Shown here piece by piece: positions 7,210 through 45,400 of a stretch of 64,000 nt of DNA; the first letter of the stretch is position 1, and the number at the start of each line of letters is the position of its first letter. Both the position numbers and the translations under genes were made by a program. The notes under the pieces are model-generated. The model was not told the DNA's origin and searched no databases. It saw nothing but the letters and a program-made list of their open reading frames with translations. The stretch comes from Dictyostelium discoideum (lineage: Eukaryota), in contig CM000155.2 in NCBI GenBank assembly GCA_000004695.1, forward strand, positions 1,920,001 through 1,984,000, written 5' to 3'.

Positions 7210-7239
7210 TGCCCTTTTCAAGGGAGTGTGAAAAAATTG

Positions 7240-7310
7240 TGCGTATGCTGGGAATCGAACCCAGTTCGCATCCGTGGCAGGGATGCATCATACCACTAGA
7301 CCACATACGC
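7240..7310 (-). tRNA. tRNA-Gly (anticodon GCC).
   Basis: The minus strand reads GCGTATGTGGTCTAGTGGTATGATGCATCCCTGCCACGGATGCGAACTGGGTTCGATTCCCAGCATACGCA. It has a 7-bp acceptor stem, an anticodon loop CTGCCAC, a T arm CTGGG-TTCGATT-CCCAG and discriminator A. Confidence 0.85.
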
Positions 7311-9550: not shown

Positions 9551-12144
9551 TTAATTATTATTTTTTATATCATTGATAATAGGATCTAGTTGAATTATTA
9601 TTGAATTCCTATTTATTAAATAATCATTTTCATTATAATTTTTAATTTGATTCAATAAATTCTTATAAATGTGATCATATTTAAAACCACCCCAGGTATC
9701 AAAATACTGCTTTAAAATTGTAAATGATGATTTAATAATATCAGTTTTGCCCAATTGTAATGATGTTTTACAAAATCTTAGTATTTGAAGTGTATGTAAA
9801 CGATCATAATATTCGTGACTATAATTTTCTCCAATTACTTTTAAAATATTATTAATTGATGATAATTCTAAATTAAGACAACACCACCTAATGCTTGGTA
9901 GTACTGCACAATTTCTTTTATAAACTGAACATGAGTATTCCCATTCCTTTAAAAATAAATCATTTCTTTTTAGTGACATGAATAACTTTAAATTATTCAA
10001 ATAATCATCTTCATTTTTGACATAGAGACTTTCTTTATCTTTATATGGACGACTTATCATTGAATCCAATAAATCATTAAATGGTGATTGTTTAATGAAT
10101 CCTAATGTTATCGATTTAAGCAAACCATTATCATTATGAGATATTGATTCATAATAATCATACAATAATCTTGATCTTTTATAAATGAAAAATAATTTAA
10201 TTTCTTTTGTTTCCTTATTAATTTCTAATTGATTTTCAATTAAAAATTGATAAATTTGCTCAGTTAGTTCTTGATTTATATATCTTCTTTTATTAAAAAA
10301 TGCATGTACCAATATTTGATAATAAAATTGCAAATTTGCTTGATGGAAGGTAGTTGTAACTGTTATTACTGTTGATGGTGATGATGACGAACATTTTTGA
10401 AGATTATTACAATTTCTATTGATTTGATTATTTGTTTTAATTATTTCTTTTGATTTATTAAATTGGTTAATGAATAATATAATAAAAGATTCTGAAAATT
10501 TTTTATCTCTCCCGTCAAAATTATAATCTTTATCTTTAATTATAAAATTCTCTATTATGAATCTTGAATAATTACTATTGGATATTATATTTCCTTTTGT
10601 ACCCTCAAAGAAACCTCCAGCAGGTTGAGCATCTAAATTGGTGTTTATTTTAATTTTTGAAAGATTAAATTTCGCTTCAGGATTTAATGTGCTTGTATTA
10701 TTTCTATCACTATCATCTTCATAAAAACCATTTCTAGATATATATTCTACTAAATAATAATATTCTTCAGGAGTAACCATTTTATAATCAAAAATAAAAT
10801 TGAATAATCTATTATATTCTTGATAAATTGATTCATCTTCTTGATTTAATAATCTTTCATTTAAAGAATATGGTAAACGACGTAAATAGCAAAGTACAGA
10901 TTTAAATTGAATACCTAATGAATGAAAATATTTAATCTCTTGAATATTACATTTTATAATTGCTTTTAAAAATGGTATTCGATAATAATATTGTAAATCT
11001 TCAGTGATTGAATTTAACTCTATAAAGTGATTCGATAATTCAATAGAATCGAAATAGTAATCAATTTCAAATAACCTTAATTCTAATTTATTTAATGATG
11101 GTTCTCTCCATTCACATTGTATAACCCAATCCATTGTTTCAATATCTTTGATAATAGGGAGAGGATGATTATATCTATCGTGAAAGATTATCATTAATGG
11201 ATTCCATGTTTTTGGTAAATATTTTTTATATTTATTTGGTATATATTTGAATAGTTCTTCATATGTTAATTTATTATCTATTTTTAGCATTATACCACCA
11301 ATGGTTTCATGTAAATATTTTTCTATATCATCATCCTCTTCATCATCATCATCTTCATCATCATCTTCTTCTTCTTCTTCTTTTTCTTCTTCTTCATCTT
11401 TTTCTTTTTCTTCCTTTTCTTTTTCTTCTTTATCATTTTGAAAACCATTGATATTATTTATTTTTGATAAAAGGGTTCTAAGGAATTCAACTGATCTATT
11501 TAAATTTTCATTTGCGGTTGAGTAAATATAGAAAGAATAACGTTTTTGAGGATCGAAAGTGAAATCCATTTGTTTCAATATCGAAGGAATGTAATTTTTA
11601 AGACTATATTCAAATGCAAACTTTTTAAAATCATCAATTGACATTAATTCATCAGGTAATACTTCATCATGATATTTTGATAAATATAATTCTAATAGTT
11701 GATCTGATCGTGTTAAGATAATTAATTTTATAAGCATTTTTTGAATATGATCCTCTTCATTTTGTTCTAATAATAATAATAATTCTGATTGCTGATGTTC
11801 TTTTGGTTTTTGTTCTCCAAATAATTCTAAACATTTTAATAAAATTTCTAATCTATCTTGATTGTTAAAATTTTTACGTTCTTTAAATACCTTTTCAATA
11901 TAATCTAATAGCTTATATATAGTTTTGTAATTTATAGTAACTGCTAAATATTCAAATCTAATGTCTTTATTTTGATGTTTTATAAATTCTAAATTTTTAT
12001 TTGATTGATTTGGTTGTTCTTTTATTATATGATTTATCATAATACGGGTTAATGTAGTACGATGTCTCTTGTTACAATGTAGATATGGGATAGAATCAAA
12101 TGAAAATTCATTGTCCATTAAACGCATTGTATATGATTCAAAGT

Positions 12145-12201
<57 letters not shown>

Positions 12202-12426
12202 TTGTATTATTTTTATTATTAATATTACTTAAAGTTCCAAATAATAAATTGATAATTTCATAACTACCATTTTTATATGCAACTTCTATTATTATTTTAT
12301 CTTCCAAAAATTCACAATTCCTTTTTTCAAGTACTAGTTGCAATATCTCTTTATATAATTCAATGTTGATTGATCTTTGACATTTTAATCTATAATATTC
12401 TTTTGGTGAATCTATTATTTGTACTC

Positions 12427-12496
<70 letters not shown>

Positions 12497-12787
12497 GTTA
12501 TTATTATTATCAACTAAATATAGATTGAATAATGACTTTATATTAAATTTACTAATATGAACATATTCATTATTTTTTAATTTATATTTTAGTAATTGAA
12601 ATTGATTATTTTTAATCATCCATTTTAAATCATAAATATGTTTAAATTTTGTCCTATTCTCTTTACCTAATGATATGGGTTCATAATTAATCCATTCATT
12701 ATTTTCTATATGATCTAATATTTTGTAAAATAAATATTTATTGTGAATTACTTTCCAAAATAGTACTTCATTATTATTAATATCCAT
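9551..12787 (-). CDS. Hypothetical 1078-aa protein with poly-Asn, poly-Thr and an Asp/Glu-rich acidic stretch. No domain recognised. Parent of the upstream pseudogene.
   Basis: A single uninterrupted ORF begins with ATG (MDINNNEVLFWKVIHNKYLF...). Outside the homopolymer tracts the sequence has complex, non-repetitive composition. Confidence 0.7.
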
Positions 12788-13349: not shown

Positions 13350-13488
13350 ATGTCATCATTGAGCGATTGGGAAAATACAAAAGAAAATATAGTTCCTCTT
13401 AAAACTGGTAGGGACCCAACTAAACTTGCATTATTTGCAAAACAAACAAATCAATCAGATGAAGAATTAGAAAAAGAAAAACAGTAAA

Positions 13489-13549
<61 letters not shown>

Positions 13550-14262
13550 TTATTTTTATTATAATTATTATTAACACAACTTTTTTTTTTTTTTTTTTTT
13601 TTTTCTTTAATAAAAGAAAATTTGAAATAATTATAAATGAATACCAAGGTGAAGATCCAATTGATAATTGGTTAAAATATATAAAATGGGTACAACAATC
13701 ATATCCAGGTGGTAATATGAAAGAACAATTAATTGTATTATTAGAGAGATGTACAAGATTATTTTTAAGTACAGAGAAATATAAAAATGATCCACGTTAT
13801 TTAAGAATTTGGATTACATATGCCGATATGTGTAGAGATCCAATTGAAGTATTCTCATTTTTAGAGGTACAACGTATAGGTTTCTATCTTTCATTACTCT
13901 ATGAAGCAAGAGCTATCGTCTATGAAAATAAAGGTAACTATGAACAAGCCGATAAATCATTCAAACAAGGTATAGAGAGAAAAGCTCAACCCATTGAAAG
14001 ATTACAACAAAAACATTTAGATTTCGAAAGAAGATTAATTGCAAGATTAAAACATCAACAACAACACCAACAACTTCAACAACAACAACAACAACAAAAT
14101 GATCAATTAGAACAACAACAACTTGATGAAAATGGTAATACAAAATTAACTAGATCTGCATTAGGTACAATTAGTTCATCTTCAGTTCATTCTGAAAGAA
14201 AATCTCAACAAACTAAAGGTTTACCATTAGGTAATTCTACAATTGGTAAGCTTTATTATTAC

Positions 14263-14334
<72 letters not shown>

Positions 14335-15497
14335 TATTATTATTATTATTATTATTATTTTAAAGATGAAAAATAAAAAAATAATATTAATATGATTTTA
14401 TTTAGATAAAAAGAGAAAAGTTGGAAATGATCAAAAAAATAATTTAGGATTTCAAATTTTTGATGATGAAAAAGGTGGTTCAACAACAAATGAAGTTTTA
14501 ACAGATTCTAAATTTTTTGGATCATCTCGTAAAGCAGCTGCTTTAATGGCTGCTGGTCAAACACAACAAACATCTCAAATGAAATGGGATGAATTAGAAC
14601 CTGAACTTAATAAACATAAAGAAAATACACAACTCTCTCAAAAATGGTCTGATGTAAAACTACTTCAAAAGAAACAAAAAATTACAACTGCTGGTTTTCA
14701 AATTTATTGTGATCAAGATTCTTTATCCAACAACAATAATGGTAGTAATAATAATAATAATAATAACAACAATGAGAATATACCATTATCACCTGATAAA
14801 TTAAGAGTTCATAGTTCAAAACAACAATCTAAATTAGAACAAATTCAAAATAATCCATTAGCAAACTTTCCAAAAGTATCAACATCAAACTCTTCTTCTT
14901 CTTCTTCTTCCTCTACCAATAAATCAACATCAACAACTACTGTTACCACTACTAAAAATGAAAGAGTTGGTTACAATAAACCATTATTTACAAAAGAGAA
15001 TGAAAAACATGAAATTTCATTTGAAGAATATAGAGCATCACTCTTTAAAAAGAAATTAATTGAAAAACAAGAACAACAAAATAAAAAAATTGAAAAAGAA
15101 AAAGAAGAATTAGATATTAAATTAAAACAAGAACAAAAAGAACAAAAAGAAAAAGAACAAAAAGAAAAAGAACAAAAAGAAAAAGAAGAATTAGAGATTA
15201 AATTAAAACAAGAGCAACAAGAAAAAGAATTACAATATCAGCAACATCAACAAAAACAATATCAACAAAAACAACAACAACAACAATCATATAATCCACC
15301 ATCTCCAACAATGACAATTCATACAAAACAAGCTTTTCATGATGTTATGGCAATGTTTAGTGAACCTTTAGAATTTGAAAAGAATAATAAATCAACATCA
15401 TCATCATCGTCATTGCAATTAAATAATGTTCCATCATCACCAAATCCTTTCACTGAAAGTACATTAATGAAATCAACAATCGATAATAATAAAAATG

Positions 15498-15537
<40 letters not shown>

Positions 15538-17563
15538 TAATAAAAATACTGATGTTTCATTTGATGAGAAATCAATTGAAGATCAAGAAAACATTGATCC
15601 AAATCAAGGTGGTGGTGGTGGTAATAATGATGGTAATCCTTTATTATCAAGTAAAATTACAAATCGTGATGTATTAATGAAACAATTATTCTCAAAGGAT
15701 GAAGATGAAGGAAACCAATTTGATCAAGAAAGAGATATGGTAAAAACAATTGAAAGAATTGATTTATTAGTAAAGGGTAAAGATACTCCAAAGTTTGAAA
15801 TTTTCGAAGATTCAACTTTAGCTTCAAGTCAATTACATTCAAAGAGTGTTAGTTTAGCTGATAAGGTTGCAAGTAAAAATAAACAATTAAATCCATTGGA
15901 ACAATCTCAAAATCCATTGAAAAAGTCAATATTAGGTAGTAGTGGTATCAATGGTATCAATGGTAATAATGGCGGTTTTACCATTTTCCAAGACCAACCA
16001 AACCAAGAGAAGAAACAACCATTACAACAATCACAATTACAAAATCCATTGAAAAACTCAATCTTAGGTATCAGTGATGCTAATGGTAATGGTGGTGGTG
16101 GTGGTAGTGGTAGTGGTAGTGGTGGTTTTACAATTTTCCAAGATCAAGCAGCTGAAGAAAAAAAACCATTTAATGAGAAAGAACAACAACAACAAGAAGA
16201 AAAAGAAAAAGAAAATAAAATAGAAGAAGAAGAAGAAGAAGAAGAAAAAGATAAAGAAAAAGAAATTAATTATCAAAATATTACAGGTAATATTACAAGT
16301 ACAATTGATCCAACCACAGTAATTATTTGTAGTTTAACACCAGATGATGGTATTGTTAATCCATATTTAATTGATCACCAATATTTATTGGAACAACACG
16401 TATCAGCTACAGTTCAATCAATTCAATCATTTTTTAATGTTGGAGATGATTTGGCACCACTACCAGAACAATTGGACCAATGTGAACCAAATCAACTTTT
16501 TGAGGATAATAGTATTATTGTTCAATGGCCATTCTCTGATATCACAGTAAACTTTACCAAATGTGTTTGTAAATCAACTATGGATGGTAGTATGACATTT
16601 AAAGTGGAAAGAATCGATGATCTAGCTATGACCACCTCTGAAGACAGTTGGTTGTCTTGTAAGGTTCAAGATCCACCCTCAATTTGGGAATTTTATATTG
16701 GAAATCAAATCCATCAACGTTTACAAGAGAGATCATTGACAATTAGTAACTCTAAATTCCCAACCATCCATTCCCTCTACTATTATACCGATAAATCCAT
16801 AATGTTAATGGATCATACTATAGATCAGGGTACTTTGGACGACGTGGTTTCAAGCACCAATGGCGTACCAATGGAAGAACCATTGGCAATGTTCCATTGT
16901 ATAGAATTGTTGAAAATGATTGAAGATTTACATTTGGTTGGTATCATTCATGGTAATATTTGTGCAAATAATTTACACTTTTTATTCGGACAAACCTCTG
17001 ATTGGCCTGATTGGACAGCAGGTGAATGTAAAGGTGCTTGGAAGAGTAAAGGTTTCACATTAACCGATTTCAGTAGATCAATCGATACAACAATCTATAG
17101 TCAAGACGCCAGATATCAATCACCAATTGAACTCTTACCAATTGGTACACCATTAGAATGGTTAAAAATCAATCAATCATCAACAACCAACGTTGGTTGG
17201 TCTTATAATTTAGATTATTTAGGTATTTGTAAAGTTATGTTTCATATTTTAACATGTGGTAAAGAAGAATTAAAATTATCATTGTCTCAACAAACTGGAA
17301 AATTAGAAATTATAAATCAATCAATAATTCAAAAAGATTCATTTTCTGAACTTGATACCTTATGGTTACCATTTTTAACCACATTGTTAAATCATAATGG
17401 TGAAAATGGTAATCAACAAACAACAACAACAACATATATATTAAAACAACAAAGAAATCTTTTTGAAAACTATTTACAATCAAATCCAGTTAAATCAAAA
17501 ATTAAATCTTTATTAAGAATTCAAAATATTAAATTATTTGAATCAATGAAATCAAAACAATAA
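13350..17563 (+). CDS. Mad3/BubR1/Bub1-family (MadBub) spindle-checkpoint protein. It has an N-terminal KEN box, a TPR-like Mad3/Bub1 homology region, a KEN-ABBA cassette and a C-terminal kinase-like domain. Exons are 13350..13483, 13617..14245 and 14406..17563.
   Basis: Exon 1 ([23 protein letters not shown]) matches BubR1 KEN box 1 (WELSKENVQPLRQGR). Exon 2 ([50 protein letters not shown]...[10 protein letters not shown]) matches the BubR1/Bub1 N-terminal TPR domain. The C-terminus ([18 protein letters not shown]...LTDFSRSID...[18 protein letters not shown]) aligns with the Bub1 kinase catalytic and activation loops. The donor at 13484 and acceptor at 13616 give split codon CA|A. The donor G|GTAAGC at 14246 and acceptor TTTAG|AT at 14405 give split codon G|AT. 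Confidence 0.8.
14256..14362 (+). repeat. Intronic (TAT)n microsatellite, about 35 units, in intron 2 of the MadBub gene. A (TTA)~20 run lies in intron 1 at 13490..13551.
   Basis: Read directly from the sequence. The ORF-track poly-Tyr tail of ORF 13717..14376 is read-through of this intron. Confidence 0.85.
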
Positions 17564-19702: not shown

Positions 19703-21723
19703 ATGGAGAAAAGAAAGAGTATATTTTTTGCAAATGATAGTGAAGATAATACATCATCAGGAGATTTAAGTAGTTTTACAAAACGTGGTACAATTACACC
19801 AGGTAAGATTGCAAATGCACGTGAAGGAGAGTTATCACAAATGATTGATGTTGAATCGGAACAGAAATATCAAGAAATTATTGAACTTTTAGTTACAGGT
19901 GGTTATTTTAGAGCACGTATTTCAGGTTTATCACCATTTGATAAAGTTGTTGGTGGCATGGCTTGGTCAATCACTGCTTCAAATGTTGATGTTGACGCTG
20001 ATTTATTCTTTCAAGAAAATTCAAATATTAAACAAAAAGTGTAAGTTTAAATTATTATTAAATTATAGTTGTAGATTTTAAATAATATATAAACCAATAA
20101 TAATAATAATAATAATAATAATTTTTTTTTTAAAAAAAAAGATCATTATCAGAAGAATTAATTAAAGCATTAAATCGTATGAAATGTCCATTTCCATTAC
20201 AAGCACAACATATTACATTATTGAATTATATAACATTATTTCCAATTATAAGATGGTTAATTACAAAAGTAATTGAAACACGTGAAGAAACAGGTGATTT
20301 ATTGAGAATGTATTCAATTTCAATGTTTAGTAAAGATTATATAGCACCAATTGATGAAGATATGAAGAAATCATTGAATGAATCATGTGATTTTATAGAG
20401 AGTGTAGAGAAAAGATATAAACCAACTCGTAAATTTAAAAGAGCCAATAATACCAAATCAACACCAACTCAAACATTATTGGAATATGGTAAATTACATC
20501 GTATTTCACGTTTACCAACAAATATAAATGAAAATAAAGAAGCTGCACAAAAATTAGAATCACAATTGAGTGGTAAGGATGGTAGTGGTAAGGATACAAC
20601 TGAAGCAGAACGTGAGGAGGAAGAGAAAAGAATTAAACAAATGATGAAAGGTATGAAAGGTGTAGAGGGTGATGCTTTGTCAAAAGTTAGTGGTGGTGTA
20701 TTGAAATCATTTTTACCATCAGAGGAGATTACAAATCTATCGGAACGTTATGGTGATATGTCTGATTTGGGTGGTGCAGAAGGTGCAAAAATGATGGCAG
20801 AGAAATTACATCGCCAAAAGATTACAAATTTGGAGAAACTAATTCAACAAAAGAATCAAGAATTGGAACAAATTATCAATGCACATTCTGAACGTCAAAC
20901 AGAGTTGGAACAACTTCAATTGCTTGTTGGTAAGAAACAAGCATTCAATGAACGTATCATTAGAGAGACAGAGAAATTGGATGCATTGGAAACACCAGAG
21001 AATACTAAAGCATTACAAGCACTACGTTCATTGGTACTATTGAATGAAACATTGATTGCTCAAGAGGAACTTTTCAAACAATCTTGTAAACGTCAAATGG
21101 TAGAATATAAACAAAAGATCGAACAACTCTTATCACAAGATGCCTCTACTCAAGAGGATCTTCAAGACAGTGATAGACAACAACAAATTCAACAAGCATT
21201 CGATAGTGATATTGGTAAATTAAAGAAATTGAAATTATTACTCAATAAAAAGAATAGAGATATCTCTTTGATTCAACGTTATCTCGATGAATTACCATCT
21301 CGTGCCGAACTATTACAATATCAAAGACAATTTGTTGAATTATCCGAACAAAGTAGTTCGAAATTAACCGAAACCAGACAATACTATACAACCTACAATA
21401 CCTTTGAAGATAAGAAAACACTTTTAGAAAATGAACTCTCAATTCTCAATTCAATTCAATCCAAATATAGCATAGCTATGTCTTCAACAAATAATAAAGA
21501 ATTATTCATTAAATCAATGGATCAAATCATTGATGGTATTCAACAAGTTTTAGATAAATCTGAAAATAAATGGAATGTTGAAAAAGTTCGTCATGATACT
21601 TTATCTGATCAATATATGACTTTATTAGATCAAGAGAGAAATTATTATAAATTAACAAAAGACTTTGAAGAAGAATGTAGAAAGAATGAATTATTAATTA
21701 AAAAATTAAATGAATTACAATAA
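19703..21723 (+). CDS. CCDC93 homolog, a subunit of the CCC/Commander complex. Exons are 19703..20040 and 20142..21723.
   Basis: [53 protein letters not shown] matches human CCDC93 ([50 protein letters not shown]). Further matches are [14 protein letters not shown] and [24 protein letters not shown]. The GTAAGT donor at 20041 and acceptor at 20141 give split codon GT|A. Confidence 0.8.
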
Positions 21724-23503: not shown

Positions 23504-26500
23504 AAAATTAATAATATATTTTTATTTTTTTATTTTTTTATTTTTTTTAAAAAAAATAGATTGCAACAAATAAAAAAAGTTTCTTTTCAAAAGTTAAAGC
23601 ATTTAGATTTGGTGGTAAAAAGACAGAAGAACCAACAGAAACTGAAAATCCAAAGAATTCAGTATCAGTTGAACAATCAATTAGAAAAGTTGCAGATCTT
23701 TATTTCCTTTTACAAGATTATGAAAATGCATTATCAAATTATAAAACTTATGCAAAAGAATTTAATAGTGATAAATCACCTGGTTTTTTTGCTGCTGCAA
23801 ATGTTTGTATTTAATAATTATTAATTATTAATTTATAATAATAATATATTTATTAATTTTTTTTTTTTTTTTTTTTAAAAACTTTTTTAAAAGGAAATGA
23901 TTGGTTTATGTAATTATATGATTAATAAAGAATGTGAATCATATTTTGAAATTTCATATAATAATTATATAAAGAGTGGATTAATTCATTGTGCAGCAAG
24001 AGTTACATTAATACATGGTTATATAATGAAAAAGAAATCGAATTTTAAAGGATTATCAGATTTATTTAAGACAACAGCAGAACTTAGAGATATTGATCCA
24101 TTTTGTTCAGCGATTTTATGGGAACAAGCAGGTTTTGCATTATTACAAACGGCACCATCACCAATGTTTAGAAAAGCAACCATGAGAATTGTAATGGCAG
24201 GTGATAAATATTCAGAGGCATCAAAGAGAAAGCATGCATTGAGATGTTATAGTTTTTCATATTCAGTATATGAGAGTAGAGATTGGAATTTAATAGATGA
24301 TCATCTTCATCTATCATTGGTACGTTATTCATTTTTCCAAGGTCATACATCGGATGCCATCCTATTTGTAAATAAATTATTGGAGAAGAATTGCCAATCC
24401 TTTCAAAAACAAAATTCAATCATACGTGAATTCCTTTACATTAGTAAAACCTATACAAAAGATAACTATATAGGTGAATTACCAATACCATCGATTAATA
24501 ATGAATCAATCTCTGTTCATTTAAATGATTATTCACCCGATGGTAGTCAATCGGTTTGGCAAGAAATGGAAGAAGCATTTAAAAAAGAAGCTCAAATCAC
24601 TTCGAAACCTCAATTACAAGGTTTTGATCTTTGGAAACGTGATCTTTATTTTGAAGCTGAAAAAGAAAGAACTGCAGTCGTTGAAGAACAAATTACAATT
24701 GAAGTTGAAATTAAAAATCCACTTCAAATTCCATTACAATTTAATCGTGTTCATTTAGTTGCGACTTTTAAAGAATTATCAACAACAACAACAACAACTA
24801 CAACTGGTGGTGCTGGTGGTGGTGATTCAACTTCAACTTCAACAACAACAACAACTCAAACTGAATTACCAAAAGAAGAATCAAATATGTCACCATTAGA
24901 TGATTTAGCAATGAATAAAATGAATAATGGATTATTACCATTTAAAGTTGAACCAATTGATATTTTATTATTACCAAGTGAAACTAAAAAAATTGTTTTT
25001 TCAATTCAACCATTAAGACCAGGTAATTTAACAGTTAAAGGTTTAGGATTATGCATGTGTGGTGCAATTTGGGGTAAACGTGAATTTAAATTAAAGAATA
25101 AACGTTTAAATAAAACTAGACAACAAAGAGAATCCATTGTCTATGAACCAAATCTTTCAACCACTTTTCGTGTCACTTGTCCAATGCCACGTTTAGAAGC
25201 ACAATTTGTAGATTTCCCAGAATCACTCTATCATGGCGAGTTAAGACAATTGAAATTGGTACTAAAGAATTGTTCCAATAAAATGGGTTTAAAGAATGTA
25301 CGTGTTCGTCTTAGTCATCCAACTGCAATTTGTTTTGGTAGTAATAGTGATGATGCATCATGTATAAAGAAATTGGATCAATCTGTATTTTTAGATGTAG
25401 CATTACCACCAAATGCCACTGTAAACGTTCCATGTTGGGTTAGAGGTATGACTGTTGGTAGACATACATTACGTTGTTTGGTTTACTATGAATCTGAGGC
25501 TGGTAATACCGATTTAAAATATCGTTTAGCAAGATGTCAAACTCAATTTGATGTACGTCCTTCCATTAGAATCTCTTCTTTATCACAACAAAGTTCAACC
25601 AATTTAAACGCTTATCTATTGGGTGTTGAAGTTGATAATCCAATCATTGGTGGTGCTGGTGATAGTTTTCATATTAAACAAATCTCTTCAATTAGTAAAC
25701 ATTGGAAAATTCAACCACTTAGTTATTCAACTGATGTACCAACACCATCAATTGTTTCCTTAAATCCTGGTAAATTTACAAATCTTTTCTTTAGAATTAT
25801 ACCTTCAACAAATATTAGTGGTGGTGGTGAAGGTATTATTGAAAATAAAAATGATGAAATTTCAATTACAAATATTAGTTTTTATAAAAATGAACCAATG
25901 TATGATTCTTCATCTTTTCCAACTTTTCATTTTTTAGAATATGAAAAATTAACAATTGATCAATTACAATTGCAACAACAACAACAACAGCAACAATTAC
26001 AACAACAACAAATACAACAACAACAACAATCACAATTAAATCAATCAACTAATAATAATATGAAACAATCAACAAGTAATAGTCAATTAAATTTATTATC
26101 AAATAATAGAGATATTATTGATAATTCATTAAATGATAATCATCCAAATCATATTGATTTATTAATTTATTGGGAATGTGATAATAATAATAGAATGGGT
26201 GTTTTAAATTCATCAAATATTTCATTCTTACCAACTCATTACAATGATCCATCTTTAGCAATACCTTGGGGATCTTGGAAAAATACAACTTCACCCTCTG
26301 GAAAGAGTATACTGTATCCATCACTTAAGCTACCATTAAGATATCAAATTAAATCTGATCTCTTGATTAAACATAACTTTGAAAAGGAAAGACTTTGTAC
26401 TGTACCATTAAAGTTACAACTTTCAAATTGTTCATTCATTCATCCACTCTGTCTTTCAGTTGAAACTTTATTACCTCATGAAAATATCGATCAAACTTCT

Positions 26501-26716
26501 CATTCAACTTGTCAATACTTTTGGACTGGTATAACAAAATATAATATCGAATTGAAACCTCAAGAAATTATCAATGTTGATTTACATGTTTGTTTTGCTC
26601 AATCTGGTGTATTTAATATAAATCGATTTAAAATTAATGTAAAATTATCAAATGAAATTCATAAAGAAATTTATTCAACAATTCAACATTTAATAAATAT
26701 TGAATCAATTAATTAA
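22432..26716 (+). CDS. TRAPPC8 (Trs85) homolog, TRAPP-III subunit. Proposed exons are 22432..22534 (tentative), 22711..22896, 22992..23452, 23560..23802 and 23894..26716.
   Basis: TPWFEKYRHQFIKSL...HPIAVILAVSSEDSNPI...IYMLIHPDNAHTESEKRLNEMKTTFNTSTSYLLRVN, VRKVADLYFLLQDYENALSNYKTYAKEFNSDKSPGFFAAAN, FRKATMRIVMAGDKYSEASKRKHALRCYSFSYSVY and the C-terminal ...CFAQSGVFNINRF all align with human TRAPPC8 (IRKMADLCFLVQHYDLAYSCYHTAKKDF; VRKYAFHMILAGHRFSKAGQKKHALRCY). Donors are GTAATA, GTAAGT, GTATGT and GTTTGT. Intron phases 1, 1, 0, 0 are all consistent. Confidence 0.8.
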
Positions 26717-28216: not shown

Positions 28217-28288
28217 TAGCTTCTCTAGGTTTCGATCCTAGGACCTCGAGGTTATGGGCCTCGCACTCTACCCCTGAGTTAAGAAGCT
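28217..28288 (-). tRNA. Initiator tRNA-Met (anticodon CAT).
   Basis: The minus strand reads AGCTTCTTAACTCAGGGGTAGAGTGCGAGGCCCATAACCTCGAGGTCCTAGGATCGAAACCTAGAGAAGCTA. It has an A1:U72 end pair, three G:C pairs closing the anticodon stem, anticodon loop CCCATAA, and a T loop AUCGAAA (A54/A60). These are the eukaryotic initiator signatures. Confidence 0.85.
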
Positions 28289-36744: not shown

Positions 36745-37413
36745 TTATTTCCATTTTATTTTTGAATTTGATAAAGATTCATCTAAAGATTGAATTATTG
36801 GATGGTTAATACCTAAATTTTGTTGAATTTTAATTCTAAATTGTTGAACTTTCTTTAATTGTCTCATTGAGATTAAAGATTCTAAAGCTACTTGATAGAT
36901 GTTATATTGGATTGAACATTCATAACGACGTTGATCATCTTGAATCATACGTGCGCATTGTTCAATGAGATCCAATGGCGCCATATTTATTGTTAAGATT
37001 TCAACGAATGCTTCAATTGGTATATCAGATACAAATGATTTTGTAAAAATGCCTTTCTTCTTTGGTAGTATACTATTAATGTATTGCCAATCTTGTAATC
37101 TTGATCTACTAGTGAGTTGATTGTAAAGATAGATTTTATTTGAAACTTTATAATTCTCTTTATAACTTATTGGTGACGATAATTTATCTTTTGGTGCACT
37201 TGGATGATAAACTAAACAATAATAAATTGTATCACTAACTGATTTACCAATTAATGTAGTTGGTCTTGGTACTCTTTGAAATATTGGATCACCCTTTAAA
37301 GCTAATTCACTATCAAATTGTTCAATTTTAATTTGTCTATCTAATACTGATAAATAAGTTTCAACTTGTTTTAAATAAATATCTAAATTATTATTATTAA
37401 TACTATTACCAGT

Positions 37414-37444
<31 letters not shown>

Positions 37445-37863
37445 CCAAAATTTACACACCATTGATTTAATAATATTACTTTTCTATTTAAATCTTTTTC
37501 TTGAATTGCCATATATAGATTAATATAGATTTCTTCATTTCTTTGATTATTTTGTTTTTGTAAAGTTATTACATCATTAAATTTACCAATTCTTCTTAAA
37601 TAACCTAAAAACATATCATATAAACCAAATTTATTACTATCACTAATTGAATTTATAACCTCAAAGAATAATCTTGTATTTAAACTATTGTATAAATAAT
37701 GCATAACCATTAAACTTGCATCCATATCCATTGATATTACTGATTGTCTAAGTATTTCTTTTTTTTCCTTTATAGTTTTATAATTTGTTAATTTCCTTAA
37801 CTCTTGATTTAAATTAAATGATTTAAAACTTGATAATTGTTCTGAATTATTTGAATTATTTGA

Positions 37864-37922
<59 letters not shown>

Positions 37923-38192
37923 ATTGATTTTTTTGATTTTCATCTTCTTGTTGTGATGAAGAAGATTGTTGTAAAATGTTTTTATGTTTATTTATAAATT
38001 TATTTGTATTTTTTAATTCTTCATTCTCTTCTAATAATTTCAAAAATTTTGTATTCAATTGATCTAATGATAATTGTAATGATTCTTTTTCTTGTATAAC
38101 TTTCATCATATTAGATCTATAAGTATTTTCTTTAGATTCAAACTCTTTATTCATTTGAATTTTTACATTTCTAATTAAATTATCAGCATCAA

Positions 38193-38286
<94 letters not shown>

Positions 38287-38616
38287 TTGAGTTACCAAAG
38301 ATGTCACTGCTGCTGTTGTTGTTGTTGTCGTTGCTTTTGTTGAGTTTTTAAGTGTTTGTTGCTGTTGTTGTTGTTGTTGTTTTTGTTGTGGTTGTTGTTG
38401 TGGAGGTGGTGGTAAAGGTTTTTTAGTTATTGGGGTTGGTTTTGTATCTTGTAAAAATGGATTCAAATCATCATCATTCTTACTTGGATTGGATTCTTTA
38501 TTGTTACAAGAAGATGTGGATGTATTTAAGAATGGGTTTAATTCCTCTTCTGATTTATTATTTATACTAGAGTTTTGCATTAAAAATGGATTTAATTCAT
38601 CTTCATTTTTAAGTGT

Positions 38617-38690
<74 letters not shown>

Positions 38691-38906
38691 GCTGGAGTTG
38701 ATTGTTATTTGAGGTTTGTTTTGATAAAAATGGGTTTAAATAGTCATCTTCACCTACTAAATGTTGTTTTGTATTATTACTAATAGGTATTGGAGGTAAC
38801 TTCTTATTCGATATATCATCGTTTGATGTTAAAAATGGGTTATCATCACTTGAAAAATTATTATTATTATTGTTATTTGTTAAAGGAGTTACAGGTAGTG
38901 ATTTTC

Positions 38907-38993
<87 letters not shown>

Positions 38994-39099
38994 TATTATT
39001 TTTGTTATTATTAGAAAGTGGATCAGTTATTAAATTGGCCCCATCTACTATTTTGTTGTTTGATGGTAAATCAAATGGGTTATCTTCAAAAGGGTTCAT
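36745..39099 (-). CDS. Hypothetical 784-aa protein with at least 6 N-terminal NPF motifs (EH-domain ligand type), long poly-Asn/poly-Gln tracts, a coiled-coil-like middle and a structured C-terminal region.
   Basis: A single ORF from ATG. It contains NPFEDNPFD, NPFLTSND, NPFLSKQ, NPFLMQN, NPFLNTST and NPFLQDT. (CAA)n at 38614..38690 encodes ~26 Gln. The C-terminus (...DMFLGYLRRIGKFNDVITLQKQ...LNQWCVNFGKQ...EAFVEILTINMAPLDLIEQCARMI...) has non-repetitive composition. Confidence 0.6.
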
Positions 39100-39494: not shown

Positions 39495-42400
39495 TTAGTT
39501 TGTAACACCAAAATTTAAATCATATCTACTTGAAGCTATCATTGGATCTAAAATAAGAATATTTGAAATTGTTGCTTTTCCATTAACCATTGTTGCAGCG
39601 TTATAAGGAATAGATGAAGTTGGTAGAGGTGATGGAATAATTGAAAGTGTAACTGAATCAGCTGTAATAATATATTGTTGATTTTGGTATGGTGGATTAA
39701 TGAATTTAAATAGACCTAATGAATCGGTTGATTGTTTTTGAATTAAGGTACCATTGGCAAATAATAAACTAACGGCAACACCTTGTTTACCTTGCTCCCA
39801 TGGTTCTTGAATACCATTACCATTTGTATCAATAAAGACAATACTACCAAGGGTAATTGGTTTTGGAGAACAGTGGGCTACAAGTTGACCAAGACCCGAT
39901 GCTTTGCCAAAGGTAACTGGATTGACTGTATCTGAATTATCAGTGAGATAAACTTGGAATGAAGAACGAAGGGTACCATTGTTATTGTTATAAAATTTGA
40001 CTACACCTTCGAATACAGTTGTAGCATCGAATGAAGCTGATGCAACCTCTGGGAAACCTGGAACTTGGAAAACTGAAAGACCACCAGTATCATCATGACC
40101 AATTTGACCTTTTCTAAAGTTATCATTATAGAATTCACCAGTACCTGGACCTTCAATTTGACCTTTATAACCTGATGGACCTGTATGAGAACCAATAGCA
40201 CCACCACATTTACCATCTCTTTCTGGGACATAAACTCCATTGACCAAACAAATACGTAAAATATCTGGTGCCGATACGAAACTACCTTGATCACCTTCTC
40301 TATCTCTGATACCGATAACCATATCATTACCATCGAATGTAATTGATGCAACGACTGGTTGTGGATTGTCATCGATATCAATCCATGGTTGCCATGTACT
40401 GTTACGACAGACTGTATTTGAATCAAAATTCTTACAACCTCTGCTATAATTTAATGGTAGAGTGACAACCTTTGTGAAGACTTGAGTGACTGGATCAAAA
40501 GAGTGAATGATTGCATTCATATCTGGGATGGTTGGACCACCACAAACTGAACCTGTATAATATTTACCTTGATGGAAGTTGATTGCAAATGGTTGCCAGA
40601 AATATTTGTCTTGGGTTCTTGTACAACCAAATGGAACCGTAAATCTTTGAGTGTTTGTTTTATTTGGCTGAGTATCCAATGGCATTATAATAATATCACG
40701 GGTTTGTAAACCAACTACTGCCAAACTACGAGTGTATGGATTAATAACAATACCACCAAATGCTGTACGATAAATCTCTGAAATTCTAAAATCTGTATCT
40801 AAACTAATGTCCATACCTAAAATATCATCAGTACCTTCTGTATCTTTTTCAAGGAAAGAATCAATTCTAGTGTATAGTGAATTTCTACCGGTTACAGTAT
40901 CGATCTTATAGATTGCATTAAGACGTCCAGGGCCATAATCTGTACCAAACTTGGTGAATGCTGAGGCGTAAAGTTGTTTCTTACTACGATCATAGGCTAG
41001 ACCATAGGTTGTACCTGATTCATAATAGAAGGATAGTGGAGTGATTTGATTATGTTGAGTAGAATTGTATGGGAACATAACGATAACTGGTTCACCAGTG
41101 TTTGGACCATTTTCATCACTATTACCAATGACATAACAACCTACTGAAAGATTTGGTACATCATTACATGTTTCTTCATTGGTGATGAAAGAGAAATCTG
41201 CAAATCCTGCTGGAACGGTGTAGGTGTTTGGAAGAATTACTGAAGTTGGTCTACATGTTTCAACCTTATCGCCTGAACCAGTTGGAAGTGCTGGCGTACC
41301 TACTGTAATCAAATAATTACCATCTTGTACAAGATTAAAGAATGAATATGAACCGGTTGAATCTGTAAGAGTGGAGTTGAAAGGAGTCTTACTATCGGCA
41401 TAGTAAATATAAACTGGAATCTTTGAAAGTGGTATATCTTTAGCTGTACCAAATTGACCACTGATATCGTATTTACCGTTACAATTGTAATCTTTGAAAA
41501 CTCTACCAGTGACATTCTTAAGACTTGGTCTAATTACACCAAGATTAACTGGTTTACATTTATATTGAGAGAATGGACAAACTATATTATCATCATCATT
41601 TGCATCCAATGTAAACATTGTAGAATTAAAGGTACCCAATAATAAAGAGTTTGTTGGTGAGCCAGTTACATTGAATTTAGTTGTTAGCCAACCAGATCCT
41701 GATGGAGGAATCAAGGTGAGTGTATAATTACCAAGTTGAAGGTTTGGAATTGAGAAACTACCATTGGCTGCCACTGGTGAGGTTGCAACAACAGTACCAA
41801 TTGGAACTGTAGTTAAACCACCATTAACGGCTTGATTGGCAGATTTCAATTGAACAGTAAAGTTACCTGGTGGAACTGAACCCATTTCAAAGAGACCATC
41901 TTGTAAAACATCATTCCAAACGTAACCAAATACACCCATTGTAGTGAAAACAAAACCTGCATCATGAGTAGGGTCAAGGTATGGTGCTGTATATAAATTT
42001 GATTCATTATCAAATCTTGAACGAATATCGGATGATGTAATAATAAGATTAAATGCATCAGTTCTACCATTAGGGAATGCATTGTTTTCTACTTGATTTG
42101 ATGTTGACACTAATTTGGTTGGAGTGATTGAATAACCGGCTGGTATGACAAATTGAACGATATAATAACCTAAACGTACATTATCAATGTAATAGTAACC
42201 TTGAGAGTTTGATACTGCTTTCAATGGGTTACCATCTGAACCCATAACTGGTTGACCATTGTTATTTAAGAGAAGTACAGTAACATTTGGTAATGGTTTT
42301 TCATCAATATCAAAGATACCATTCTTGTTGGTATCAATAAAGGTTCTAACACCCAATGCAACATATGGGGTATTTATACCAACATTGGCTTTGTTGTACG

Positions 42401-45400
42401 CTTGTCTACAACGACTAACACTTGATACAGTTACTACATCTGGTCCTGGCATTGTGAATATTGGTGTTGTACGATTTAATGGGAAGAATCTATTGTTGAC
42501 TAAACCAGTAGTGGTGAAATTTGAAATGATATAACGAGGTGGAATTGAAACTGTCATATAGTAGGAACCTGGTGGAACGTTTGGAATTGAATATTTACCA
42601 TTTACATCTGTGACTGCCATTTGAATTGGTTTGCCGAAAATATCATTTGGAGTGGAACCATCTGCATTAAAGAGTGTAAGGTTTACATATGGGAAACCAA
42701 TTTCATTGATATCAAAGATACCATTGAGATTACCATCGGACCATGATTGTTGACCAATACTGTAACATGGGATTACAATACCTGCATCATTGTTTAGATT
42801 TTTCCAAGTATTTGATCCATAGGTTGTATCCAATGTAAAGTTATTCAAAACAATTACTTGACCGTTTGCTGTGGCTCTTGACATACCACCTGTCAAAATT
42901 GGTGAATAAGTAGTACCTGCAATATATTTGGTACTATTGGCAGGTATAGTTAATCTTACTACATAGGAAGGTCCACTTGATACATTTTGGAATAAATATT
43001 TACCATTGGCAGTTGTTACTTGACTTGAAATTGGTTTACCTAAAATATCCAATGCTGGTGAAAGATCTGAAGATACTAATAATTCAACTTTAATACCATC
43101 TGCACCAACTTCACCATTGTCTAATAGTGAATTATTATTTGAATCAATCCAAATAGTATCACCTAAATATATTTTTTTTTTTCATCAAATTATATTAAAA
43201 AAACAAATTATTAATAAAAATAAAAATTTTAATAAAAATAAAATTATATTTAAAAAAAATTTAATACTTTACCAATAATAAATGATTGTGGAACATAACC
43301 AACATTGAATGTATAATTCTTATTGAAAGCCTTGAGATTATCTGATGGAACTGTACGTAATGTATTATTATAAATTTCAATATCTAAACATAATGTATTA
43401 TTACCTTTTAAGAAATTATCTGGACCTGATATACCAAGTTGATAGGTTGGATTTGGTGGTATGAAAGTTAAACAATCGTTACCAGTTTCTAAATTATCAA
43501 AAATGTAGAAACCATTGGCATCAGTTTGTTTGGTCTTTGAACCAATTGAGATTGTAACATTTGCAATACCTGGTTCATCTACATCTTTCTTACCATTGTT
43601 GTTAATATCTAAGAATACAAATCTACCAATTGCTATCTTGGGTGGAACAATACCAAAGTCTTGATAGATATTGATATAGTTTGCTTTAAGATTCCAAGTT
43701 GAATCAATTAGCATAAGTGCTTTATCATTTTGACTGAGATCAATACTGATGTAACCAGTTGCATTTGCCTTGTTATCTTGAAGAGTATTATTGGAGATTG
43801 TAAAACCAACTGGTGGAGTAATTGCTAAATTGTAAACTCCTGGGTATAAATTATCGAAAATGTAGATACCACTTGGATTTGTTACGGTAGATGTTATAAA
43901 GTTAAAGTTACTATCATAAATTCTAACAGTAATACCTTCAACTGCAGGTTCATATGATTCAGCTCCACCATTACCATTCTTATCTACCCAAATATATGTT
44001 CCAACTGCATATTTGTATGGGGCTAAACCAAAATTAACAGTGGCATCTTGATAGGTATCTTCAGTATGACTTGGAATTGAGAATCTTTGAACGGTTGGAC
44101 TGAATACAGAGACATTGGTACAAGCAATAGCATTAGAATCACCTCTATTAAATGTTGTTGGAGTTAAGAGAGTTGGATAAAATTCTTTTGGTACAGTGAG
44201 TGAAACGCAATAATTTCCTGGAGCTAAATGGGTAAAGATGTATGTTCCATTGGCATCTGTTGTTGTTGTTGCAATGGTTTGTGATAGGTTAGAACCACTT
44301 CTTAAGAAAACTGTAATATTTGCCATACCCATTTCACTTGGTTGCATTTGACCATCTTTATTGTCATCATTGAAAACAATGAAACCAATACTCAAATATT
44401 CTGTGGTGAAACCAGCATCAATATTTCTATTAATATAATAAGTTGGTACTTTATCTGATGCAATCGATGCTGTAACATCTGGACTATTGATTCTAAGAGA
44501 AACTGATACACGTCCTCTACTGTTTACTTTAGATTGATCTGTTATTGGACTTGGTTTCAATTGTTTTGGATAACCAAATTGTACAACATAATCTCCTTGT
44601 TCAACATTAACGAAATGATAGATACCTTGTGAATCAGTGGTTGTGGTCATGAGAGTTGTATTGAATAAATTCAAAAGTCTAACGGTAATATTAACCAATG
44701 GAGTATCTTGGGCACTATCAAATAGACCATTTCCATTAACATCACGGAATACAAAGTCACCAATTGAAAAGATTGGTGGAATTAAACCACCATTAATATC
44801 ATTTCTACAAATTGGATCACCATAATTAATAGTGAAACAACTTAAACCTTGAGGGTTGAATACAGAGTCATTGGTTATCTTTGTCATTATATAGTTATCG
44901 ATAATGGATAAACTTACACAATAATTTCCAACAACTAAATTATCGAATCTATAATTTCCATTTACATCAGTTGTTGTAGTTTGAGTTGGTAAAGCGGTGT
45001 TATTTGGAGTAAGAGTAATGGTTAAGTTTCTATATGGTTCTTCGGTTGGTTCTGGATGACCATTACCGTTAATATCAATCCAAACATATTTACCAACACA
45101 ATAAAGTGGAACTAAACCGAGGTTTGCGTCATTTTTATTTCCAGATAGCGTGAAACAATATTGTTGTGTGTTTGAATCACCACCAATTGGTGAGAATGGT
45201 GAATCATTTGATTTTGTAACTGCTTTGAAATTTTGTGGAACTGATGCAGTTAAACAATAATTACCGGCTAATAATTGACCAAAACTATATTTACCTTGTG
45301 AGTTTGTTGTTGTTGTTTTTATTTCTGAGTTTCCAGTGTTAACAAGAGAAAGAGAAACATTTGCTTGAAGTGGATCATCTAAATCTTTAATACCATTATT

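Follow-up and report, generated by a model that had tools for sequence, protein, structure and literature searches.

What does a checkpoint protein do with a kinase domain from which the catalytic residues seem to be gone? The question is raised by a gene at positions 13350 to 17563 of a 64,000-nucleotide stretch of Dictyostelium discoideum DNA (assembly GCA_000004695.1, contig CM000155.2, positions 1,920,001 to 1,984,000, forward strand), the whole of which is referred to below as the window. A preliminary description of this stretch saw in the gene a BubR1-type pseudokinase that arose in a lineage usually thought to have a single MadBub gene. According to our analysis the gene is, by its sequence, D. 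discoideum bub1, an unduplicated MadBub orthologue of Bub1 and BubR1/Mad3, and its kinase domain, predicted to be inactive, appears to have decayed in the catalytic positions across the dictyostelids that could be sampled, with its fold kept.

The bub1 gene and its kinase-like domain

The spliced translation of the gene agrees in 1306/1306 amino acids (aa) with DDIS_MADBUB of Tromer et al. 2016 (PMC5204127), and this full identity is what identifies it as bub1; the same sequence is found as Dictyostelium_discoideum_DDIS008699_bub1_MadBub in van Hooff et al. 2017, and the same protein as DDB0231500 Bub1 (dictyBase) in Goldberg et al. 2006 (PMC1420674). The reading frame begins with an ATG at 13350, ends with a TAA at 17561-17563 and is carried by three exons, the structure proposed in the preliminary description, with both splice junctions in agreement with the curated protein:

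13350..17563, + strand: bub1/MadBub gene from ATG to stop, 1,306 aa, by the splice model and the match to published DDIS_MADBUB
13350..13483, + strand: exon 1; the junction peptide EKEKQ/KFEII agrees with the published protein
13484..13616, + strand: intron 1, 133 nt, GTAAAT...AAAAG, 95.5% A+T, with a (TTA)n tract
13617..14245, + strand: exon 2 of the three-exon splice model
14246..14405, + strand: intron 2, 160 nt, GTAAGC...TTTAG, 94.4% A+T
14406..17563, + strand: exon 3 of the three-exon splice model

Both introns are of the GT..AG type with 94-96% A+T, and the region as a whole, A+T-rich, with poly-Asn/Gln tracts and short, nearly pure A+T introns, is typical for dictyostelids. The sole other in-frame acceptor of intron 2, at 14421, would drop 5 aa and was rejected as a mismatch to the published protein. 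As a separate observation, the introns consist mostly of long (TTA)n/(ATT)n microsatellites (13488-13545, 14255-14350), which, where they are in frame, appear as poly-Ile or poly-Tyr open reading frames (ORFs) in a mechanical ORF list.

With regard to copy number, one BUB family gene is counted for Dictyostelium by Goldberg et al. 2006, DDIS_MADBUB is the sole D. discoideum MadBub entry of Tromer et al. 2016, and MadBub.fa of van Hooff et al. 2017 holds one DDIS entry, all of which bears out the single MadBub gene that had been assumed for the lineage. The genome-wide single-copy status is taken from these published catalogues; our own paralogue search covered the window, where tblastn returned the exons of the gene itself (other matches had E>1) and no second MadBub paralogue.

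The C-terminus of the protein matches the human BUB1 kinase domain with E=2.5e-10 (phmmer/HMMER), and the parts of the domain that are of importance here are the following:

16643..17560, + strand: kinase-fold core of Bub1 type, predicted inactive, aa 1001-1306 (phmmer, AlphaFold2, Foldseek)
16520..16543, + strand: equivalent of the Gly-rich loop, VQWPFSDI, with zero glycines, aa 960-967 (MAFFT)
16661..16663, + strand: beta3 ('VAIK') lysine K1007, retained, in SCKVQ (HMMER/MAFFT; invariant in the 40-sequence alignment)
16949..16972, + strand: catalytic loop HGNICANN, aa 1103-1110, with Asp replaced by Asn and Lys by Cys, the terminal Asn kept
17066..17074, + strand: DFS at the DFG position, aa 1142-1144, Asp kept and Gly replaced by Ser

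HMMER and a MAFFT alignment with 12 other MadBub, Bub1 and BubR1 kinase domains agree in aligning the HGN Asn with the catalytic-base Asp in HGDIKPDN, a position at which the D. discoideum protein has no Asp, and DFS with DLG/DFG. VQWPFSDI faces the GEGAFAxV of other family kinases in the MAFFT alignment, and the columns of the Gly-rich loop stay unmatched by hmmalign in every dictyostelid. With the Pfam Pkinase model the protein goes unmatched even at E<=1, in agreement with Goldberg et al. 2006, whose kinase hidden Markov model missed the Bub1 orthologue, which was recovered by BLAST alone. Kept in D. discoideum, by MAFFT, are K1007, the alphaC Glu (in WEFY), the catalytic-loop Asn and the DFG Asp, and the columns of K1007 and of the alphaC Glu are invariant in the 40-sequence alignment; from the set of features taken as marks of an active kinase, the beta3 Lys and alphaC Glu are present, and the Gly-rich loop and the catalytic Asp are missing. 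The loss of the catalytic Asp and of the DFG Gly, read earlier from HGN-ICANN and DFS, is thus upheld by both alignments, and the VAIK lysine, left to be located, turns out to be K1007 in CKVQ. What had been overlooked were the lost Gly-rich loop, the Lys to Cys change in the catalytic loop and the residues that are retained.

On the placement of this lysine, it may be added that Table S2 of Goldberg et al. 2006 takes FKVE (aa 985-988; 16595-16606) as the VAIK motif, and that the alignment of Bub1 kinases sets the beta3 Lys 20 residues past FKVE, in CKVQ (aa 1005-1009; 16655-16669), directly before the WEFY alphaC helix.

The fold is predicted to be that of a Bub1 kinase. AlphaFold2, run with the alignment of 40 sequences, gave for the C-terminal domain a predicted local distance difference test score (pLDDT) of 86.8 and a predicted template modelling score of 0.89 (a single-sequence run, with pLDDT 31.7, was discarded). 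The top six Foldseek matches were all Bub1 or BubR1 kinase domains, the human Bub1 kinase at E~1e-18 with template modelling scores of 0.80-0.82 (target-normalised), and other kinases followed at ~1e-9, about 9 orders of magnitude behind.

An exhaustive HMMER search with aa 876-1306 against 1.84 billion representative proteins returned 780 relatives, 383 of them at E<=1e-10 and one 91% identical to the query. The five closest, P. pallidum among them, carry the dictyostelid-type N-terminus SDWENxKENIxPL. At the position of the catalytic Asp they read HGN, HGS, HGS, NGS and HAN, so that the Asp is absent in 5/5 and, together with the HGN of D. discoideum, replaced by Asn or Ser in 6/6 dictyostelid sequences. 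The Gly-rich loop is absent in all five, the beta3 Lys and alphaC Glu are present in 5/5, and the DFG position appears as DFS, DYS, NYS, NYY and GFS, with the Asp lost in 3/5 (N/N/G). HxD is kept in 131 of the 150 best relatives, Acanthamoeba included, the other 19 being without the catalytic Asp. Since the Asp is absent in all sampled dictyostelids and HxD is kept in 131/150, the sequences indicate that the catalytic residues had already gone when the sampled dictyostelids diverged and that these positions then drifted freely, which is the pattern of a true pseudokinase. The kinase domain, nearly gap-free and with 32-45% identity across dictyostelids, next to gap-rich linkers, appears in turn to be retained under constraint. 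Such a clade-wide loss of catalytic residues in dictyostelids with the fold kept was not found stated in the literature that we searched.

Two side observations concern the family as a whole. A word-indexed protein search with the 431-aa C-terminal domain gave zero matches despite the 780 relatives, so that a null result in a search of that kind is not equal to absence for the MadBub kinase family. Kinase decay in this family seems also to be commoner than the vertebrate 'pseudo_kinase' label suggests (19/150; Salpingoeca, Thecamonas).

Short motifs and the proposed work of the protein

Outside the kinase core, the protein carries a long row of domains and short motifs, which we list in their order along the gene:

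13362..13439, + strand: KEN1 box region, aa 5-30 (KEN1/5-30 of Tromer et al. 2016), kept in five dictyostelid orthologues
13476..13974, + strand: TPR domain (Mad3/BUB1 homology region 1), aa 43-164, with intron 1 inside; Pfam PF08311
14143..14181, + strand: D-box, aa 221-233 (Dbox/221-233 of Tromer et al. 2016), RxxL at aa 224
14441..14476, + strand: ABBA1, aa 267-278, containing GFQIFDDE at aa 269-276 (FQIFDD from 270)
14573..14671, + strand: KEN2 with two flanking Trp, aa 311-343, W315...KEN(326)...W335; NKHKENTQ at aa 323-330
14687..14722, + strand: ABBA2, aa 349-360, GFQIYCDQD at aa 351-359 (FQIYCD from 352)
14822..14881, + strand: MadaM motif, aa 394-413 (MadaM/394-413 of Tromer et al. 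2016)
14957..15064, + strand: GLEBS, predicted to bind Bub3, aa 439-474; sequence motif EISFEEYRA at aa 457-465
15296..15376, + strand: CMI/CD1, predicted to bind Mad1, aa 552-578; follows the PSPTxTxxTKxA...MF pattern (aa 552-572)
aa 647-654: QEN, an 'other KEN' in the annotation of Tromer et al.
15785..15820, + strand: extra ABBA motif a, aa 715-726, KFEIFED at aa 718
15908..16147, + strand: two diverged repeat units QNPLK(K/N)SILG...GGFTIFQDQ, with extra ABBA motifs b (aa 776-787) and c (aa 826-837)
16358..16474, + strand: CDII, N-terminal extension of the kinase domain, aa 906-944 (CDII/906-944 of Tromer et al. 2016), a modelled helix with pLDDT >90

KEN1 stands in the conserved context xWExxKENxxPLxxGR (aa 5-21) and agrees with the KEN1 sequences of Tromer et al. 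2016, and the Mad3_BUB1_I model PF08311 is matched over its positions 2-123/123 at E=3.4e-43, with 146.9 bits at a cut-off of 31.4. The ABBA1-KEN2-ABBA2 cassette has the two tryptophans around KEN2 that are the defining feature of this motif (Tromer et al. 2016), and it is kept in the five dictyostelid orthologues. CMI/CD1, with 63-85% identity among dictyostelids, shows the highest conservation within the linker. The C-terminal ABBA array, of 2-5 copies, and the overall layout of short motifs are kept in all dictyostelid orthologues.

Chance would hardly produce such an array of ABBA motifs: five strict matches to Fx[ILV][FHY]x[DE] were seen vs 0.10 expected (P<0.0002, 5,000 protein shuffles). 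For KEN, four were seen vs 0.91 expected (P=0.016, protein shuffles), and we rejected two of the four as functional degrons, those at aa 451 (within GLEBS) and at aa 856 (in an E/K-rich tract), because neither is seen past the closest relative and about one KEN is expected by chance. GGFTIFQDQ occurs at aa 777-785 and 827-835, in repeat units of 30 and 36 aa whose starts are 44 aa apart, which is the duplicated block of ~45 aa noticed earlier; P. pallidum has an equivalent NPLFG...GGFxIFQD array with 5 copies. Tandem Repeats Finder, applied to 15700-16300, found only microsatellites and no DNA-level tandem repeat, which rules out a recent DNA duplication, and the two units are therefore a diverged protein-level repeat.

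As for the motifs named in the preliminary description, KEN1, quoted there as the string at aa 7-21, the cassette and both GGFTIFQDQ strings are all where it put them, and GLEBS, which it left to be found, lies at aa 439-474. Its list was incomplete and omitted the fifth ABBA motif KFEIFED, the D-box, MadaM, GLEBS, CMI/CD1, QEN and CDII. Its presentation of ABBA-KEN-ABBA as a feature of vertebrate BUBR1 should be given up: the cassette is ancestral to eukaryotes and is no vertebrate-specific feature. By its predicted motifs the protein holds the full ancestral feature set, that is the Bub1 side (GLEBS, CMI, CDII and the kinase fold) together with the BubR1/Mad3 side (KEN1, D-box and the KEN2 cassette).

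Taking together the gene model, motifs, fold homology, substitutions and dictyostelid conservation observed in this analysis with homology to characterised Bub1 and BubR1, from which all statements on binding and activity are drawn, we consider it very probable that one MadBub polypeptide with a C-terminal pseudokinase does both of the jobs that animals and yeasts divide among two paralogues. GLEBS would bind Bub3 and dock the protein on phosphorylated Knl1 at the kinetochore, CMI/CD1 would recruit Mad1, and the C-terminal ABBA array may concentrate Cdc20 at the kinetochore. KEN1 and the TPR domain would bind one Cdc20 within the mitotic checkpoint complex, and the D-box with ABBA1-KEN2-ABBA2 would bind a second Cdc20, the one that the anaphase-promoting complex/cyclosome has bound, so that anaphase is blocked. 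With its Gly-rich loop gone, and likewise the catalytic Asp, the Lys of the catalytic loop and the DFG Gly, the C-terminal domain most likely serves for structure, stabilisation or docking, as a pseudokinase and not a histone H2A kinase; in human BUBR1 the pseudokinase confers stability.

Rival readings, wider meaning and neighbouring genes

Several points weigh against this pseudokinase reading, and it would be logical to take them together with its main rival, in which the domain is active via a non-canonical site, as WNK, Haspin and CASK are, and phosphorylates H2A or some other substrate. D. discoideum still has K1007 and the Glu of alphaC, together with the Asn of the catalytic loop and the Asp of DFG, so that nucleotide binding or unconventional catalysis may remain, and the domain is conserved across dictyostelids. 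Goldberg et al. 2006 qualified their inactive call in view of the departure of BUB sequences from the kinase consensus, and noted that in other species BUB-family kinases have activity in spite of such divergence. The AlphaFold2 alignment was dominated by canonical Bub1 kinases, so that the model speaks for fold compatibility only and is no independent structure. On the side of function, the binding of Cdc20, Bub3 and Mad1 by the motifs is argued by analogy, our literature search gave no biochemical or genetic data on D. discoideum Bub1, and a 2021 review calls the Dictyostelium spindle checkpoint poorly investigated; this checkpoint has been described as prone to slippage. We nevertheless hold non-canonical activity to be unlikely, because this is a clade without any conserved catalytic residue. 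The exchange of the catalytic-base Asp for Asn, as in D. discoideum, is a classic kinase-dead change of established kinase enzymology. There is no conserved residue that could compensate for it, the five orthologues having N, S, S, S and N at this place and three of them N/N/G instead of the DFG Asp; every glycine of the G-loop and the catalytic-loop Lys are lost, and Pfam Pkinase finds nothing to match even at the permissive E<=1.

The label 'BubR1-type', given to the gene in the preliminary description, is right only in part, and the differences outweigh what is shared. DFS and the degenerate Gly-rich loop are common to this protein and vertebrate BUBR1 pseudokinases (XTRO_MAD has VDFSHSVD), and KEN1 and ABBA-KEN2-ABBA are present, from which one could think of a BubR1-like subfunctionalisation that has stayed hidden, with a Bub1-like partner gene that may have escaped detection. 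We regard this as very improbable: the gene is unduplicated, with one copy in three genome-wide datasets and no paralogue in the window, GLEBS, CMI and CDII, usually shed by BubR1/Mad3 paralogues, are kept, and the HGD that vertebrate BUBR1 keeps has lost its Asp in the Dictyostelium protein. It is harder still to believe that the degeneration is an artefact of mis-splicing, sequencing error or a decaying pseudogene, for which one could cite only that Dictyostelium sequence, AT-rich and repeat-rich, is difficult in general, and against which stand the 3.1-kb unbroken reading frame of exon 3, both splice junctions as in the curated protein, the recurrence of substitutions and architecture in five independent orthologues and the confident modelling of the domain as a complete kinase fold.

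H2A-T120 is the conserved substrate of the Bub1 kinase and recruits shugoshin, and we scored shugoshin presence in ten species by entries in Sgo.fa (van Hooff et al. 2017, Dataset EV1). D. discoideum, P. pallidum, Thecamonas and Salpingoeca, all with degenerate kinase motifs, have 0 entries each; among the species with canonical kinase motifs, Acanthamoeba, Yarrowia, Ustilago and Thalassiosira have 1 entry each, and Phaeodactylum and Trichoplax have 0. An entry is thus found in 0/4 degenerate-kinase vs 4/6 canonical-kinase species, which is not significant (one-sided Fisher P=0.07), and with the dictyostelids counted as one event the same test gives P=0.12. Detection of shugoshin is notoriously difficult, and the sample is tiny. 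A parallel between catalytic decay in Bub1 and loss of shugoshin is a weak lead, to be taken as a hypothesis only. For the dictyostelid clade we would suggest, tentatively and with more doubt than confidence, a single MadBub with a kinase dead since before the radiation yet constrained, and a H2A-T120ph-shugoshin pathway perhaps also lost, Bub1 catalysis having no other conserved output. If this is true, nature has supplied in dictyostelids a kinase-dead Bub1 without duplication of the gene, in which what the Bub1 kinase fold does apart from catalysis is isolated and Bub1 catalysis and shugoshin have been eliminated together.

The novelty that the preliminary description implied does not hold, since the motif map and the predicted dead kinase of bub1 were already published for the same gene, in 2016 and 2006. 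The feature file of Tromer et al. 2016 has all short motifs at the same coordinates, including three ABBA_other, and labels the D. discoideum domain 'kinase', not 'pseudo_kinase'. Table S2 of Goldberg et al. 2006 gives HGNICANN, DFS and 'inactive (qualified)' for Bub1 DDB0231500, and the same paper counts BUB with the kinase domains for which it predicts inactivity in Dictyostelium. The discovery value is small for that reason, with gene, motifs and inactive kinase in the literature and the cassette expected in any MadBub of ancestral type. At the same time bub1 makes a clean positive control, a complex eukaryotic checkpoint gene recognisable from raw sequence, and Dictyostelium, being genetically tractable, could serve to study the Bub1 kinase fold without catalysis.

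The surroundings of bub1 in the window can be described shortly:

43250-63526, - strand: uninterrupted ORF of 6,758 aa with ~60 SdrD B-like (PF17210) repeats
39495-43052, - strand: adjacent ORF of 1,185 aa with three more SdrD B-like repeats
20179-21723, + strand: ORF, CCDC93 homologue (PF09762, E=3e-123)
23897-26716, + strand: ORF with TRAPPC8 C-terminal immunoglobulin-like domains
7239-7310, - strand: tRNA-Gly(GCC)
28217-28288, - strand: tRNA-Met(CAT)
9551-12787, - strand: ORF of 1,078 aa, no Pfam match at E<=1e-5
36745-39099, - strand: ORF of 784 aa, no Pfam match at E<=1e-5

The first two ORFs probably make up one giant repeat protein of colossin-like type, interrupted by an intron, and the ORF at 9551-12787 lies head-to-head with bub1, ~560 bp upstream of its start codon.

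Comparison with known systems

DDIS_MADBUB, as treated by Goldberg et al. 2006 and Tromer et al. 2016, is the same gene with zero sequence differences, and our reading departs from theirs in interpretation only, in the placement of VAIK and in the label 'kinase'. The nearest non-dictyostelid amoebozoan sequence available, ACAS_MADBUB of Acanthamoeba castellanii, is likewise a single polypeptide and shares KEN1, TPR, the KEN2 cassette, GLEBS, CMI, an ABBA cluster before the kinase and the C-terminal tail NPxKxK-IKxLL, but its kinase is canonical (GEGAFATV, ALKV, IIHGDIKPDN, IDYG), and van Hooff et al. 2017 give an entry for shugoshin in this species.

Human BUB1 (4R8Q, 4QPM, 5DMZ, 6F7B) has in common with the Dictyostelium protein GLEBS, CMI/CD1, ABBA motifs, the CDII/N-terminal extension and the kinase fold. 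It is without a functional KEN1/KEN2 cassette, which the Dictyostelium protein possesses, and as a kinase it is active on H2A-T120 and has HGDIKPDN/DLG as well as a Gly-rich loop, catalytic residues that are missing from the Dictyostelium protein. Vertebrate BUBR1 (XTRO_MAD, human) resembles it on the other side, with KEN1, TPR, D-box and ABBA1-KEN2-ABBA2, and also with a kinase fold without catalysis, a degenerate Gly-rich loop and DFS (VDFSHSVD in Xenopus), the inactivity of the Dictyostelium domain being predicted. Unlike the Dictyostelium gene, vertebrate BUBR1 arose by duplication, lost CMI and shed the Bub1-side motifs, and it keeps the catalytic triad HGD (HGDLRPET in XTRO_MAD) where Dictyostelium has HGN. 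The vertebrate BUBR1 pseudokinase co-evolved with the KARD motif that recruits PP2A-B56; KARD is not among 15 of the 16 DDIS feature entries of Tromer et al. 2016, the sixteenth being unidentified and no KARD search having been made.

The dictyostelid MadBub represents an independent kinase degeneration in an unduplicated gene. Two other single-copy proteins, both labelled 'kinase' in Tromer et al. 2016, are comparable in this respect: SROS_MADBUB of Salpingoeca rosetta, with AGNFQPEN/TNFA and the catalytic Asp absent, and TTRA_MADBUB of Thecamonas trahens, with HTHIATDK, the catalytic Asp likewise absent and DFG kept. Both belong to independent lineages and carry other substitutions than those of D. 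discoideum.

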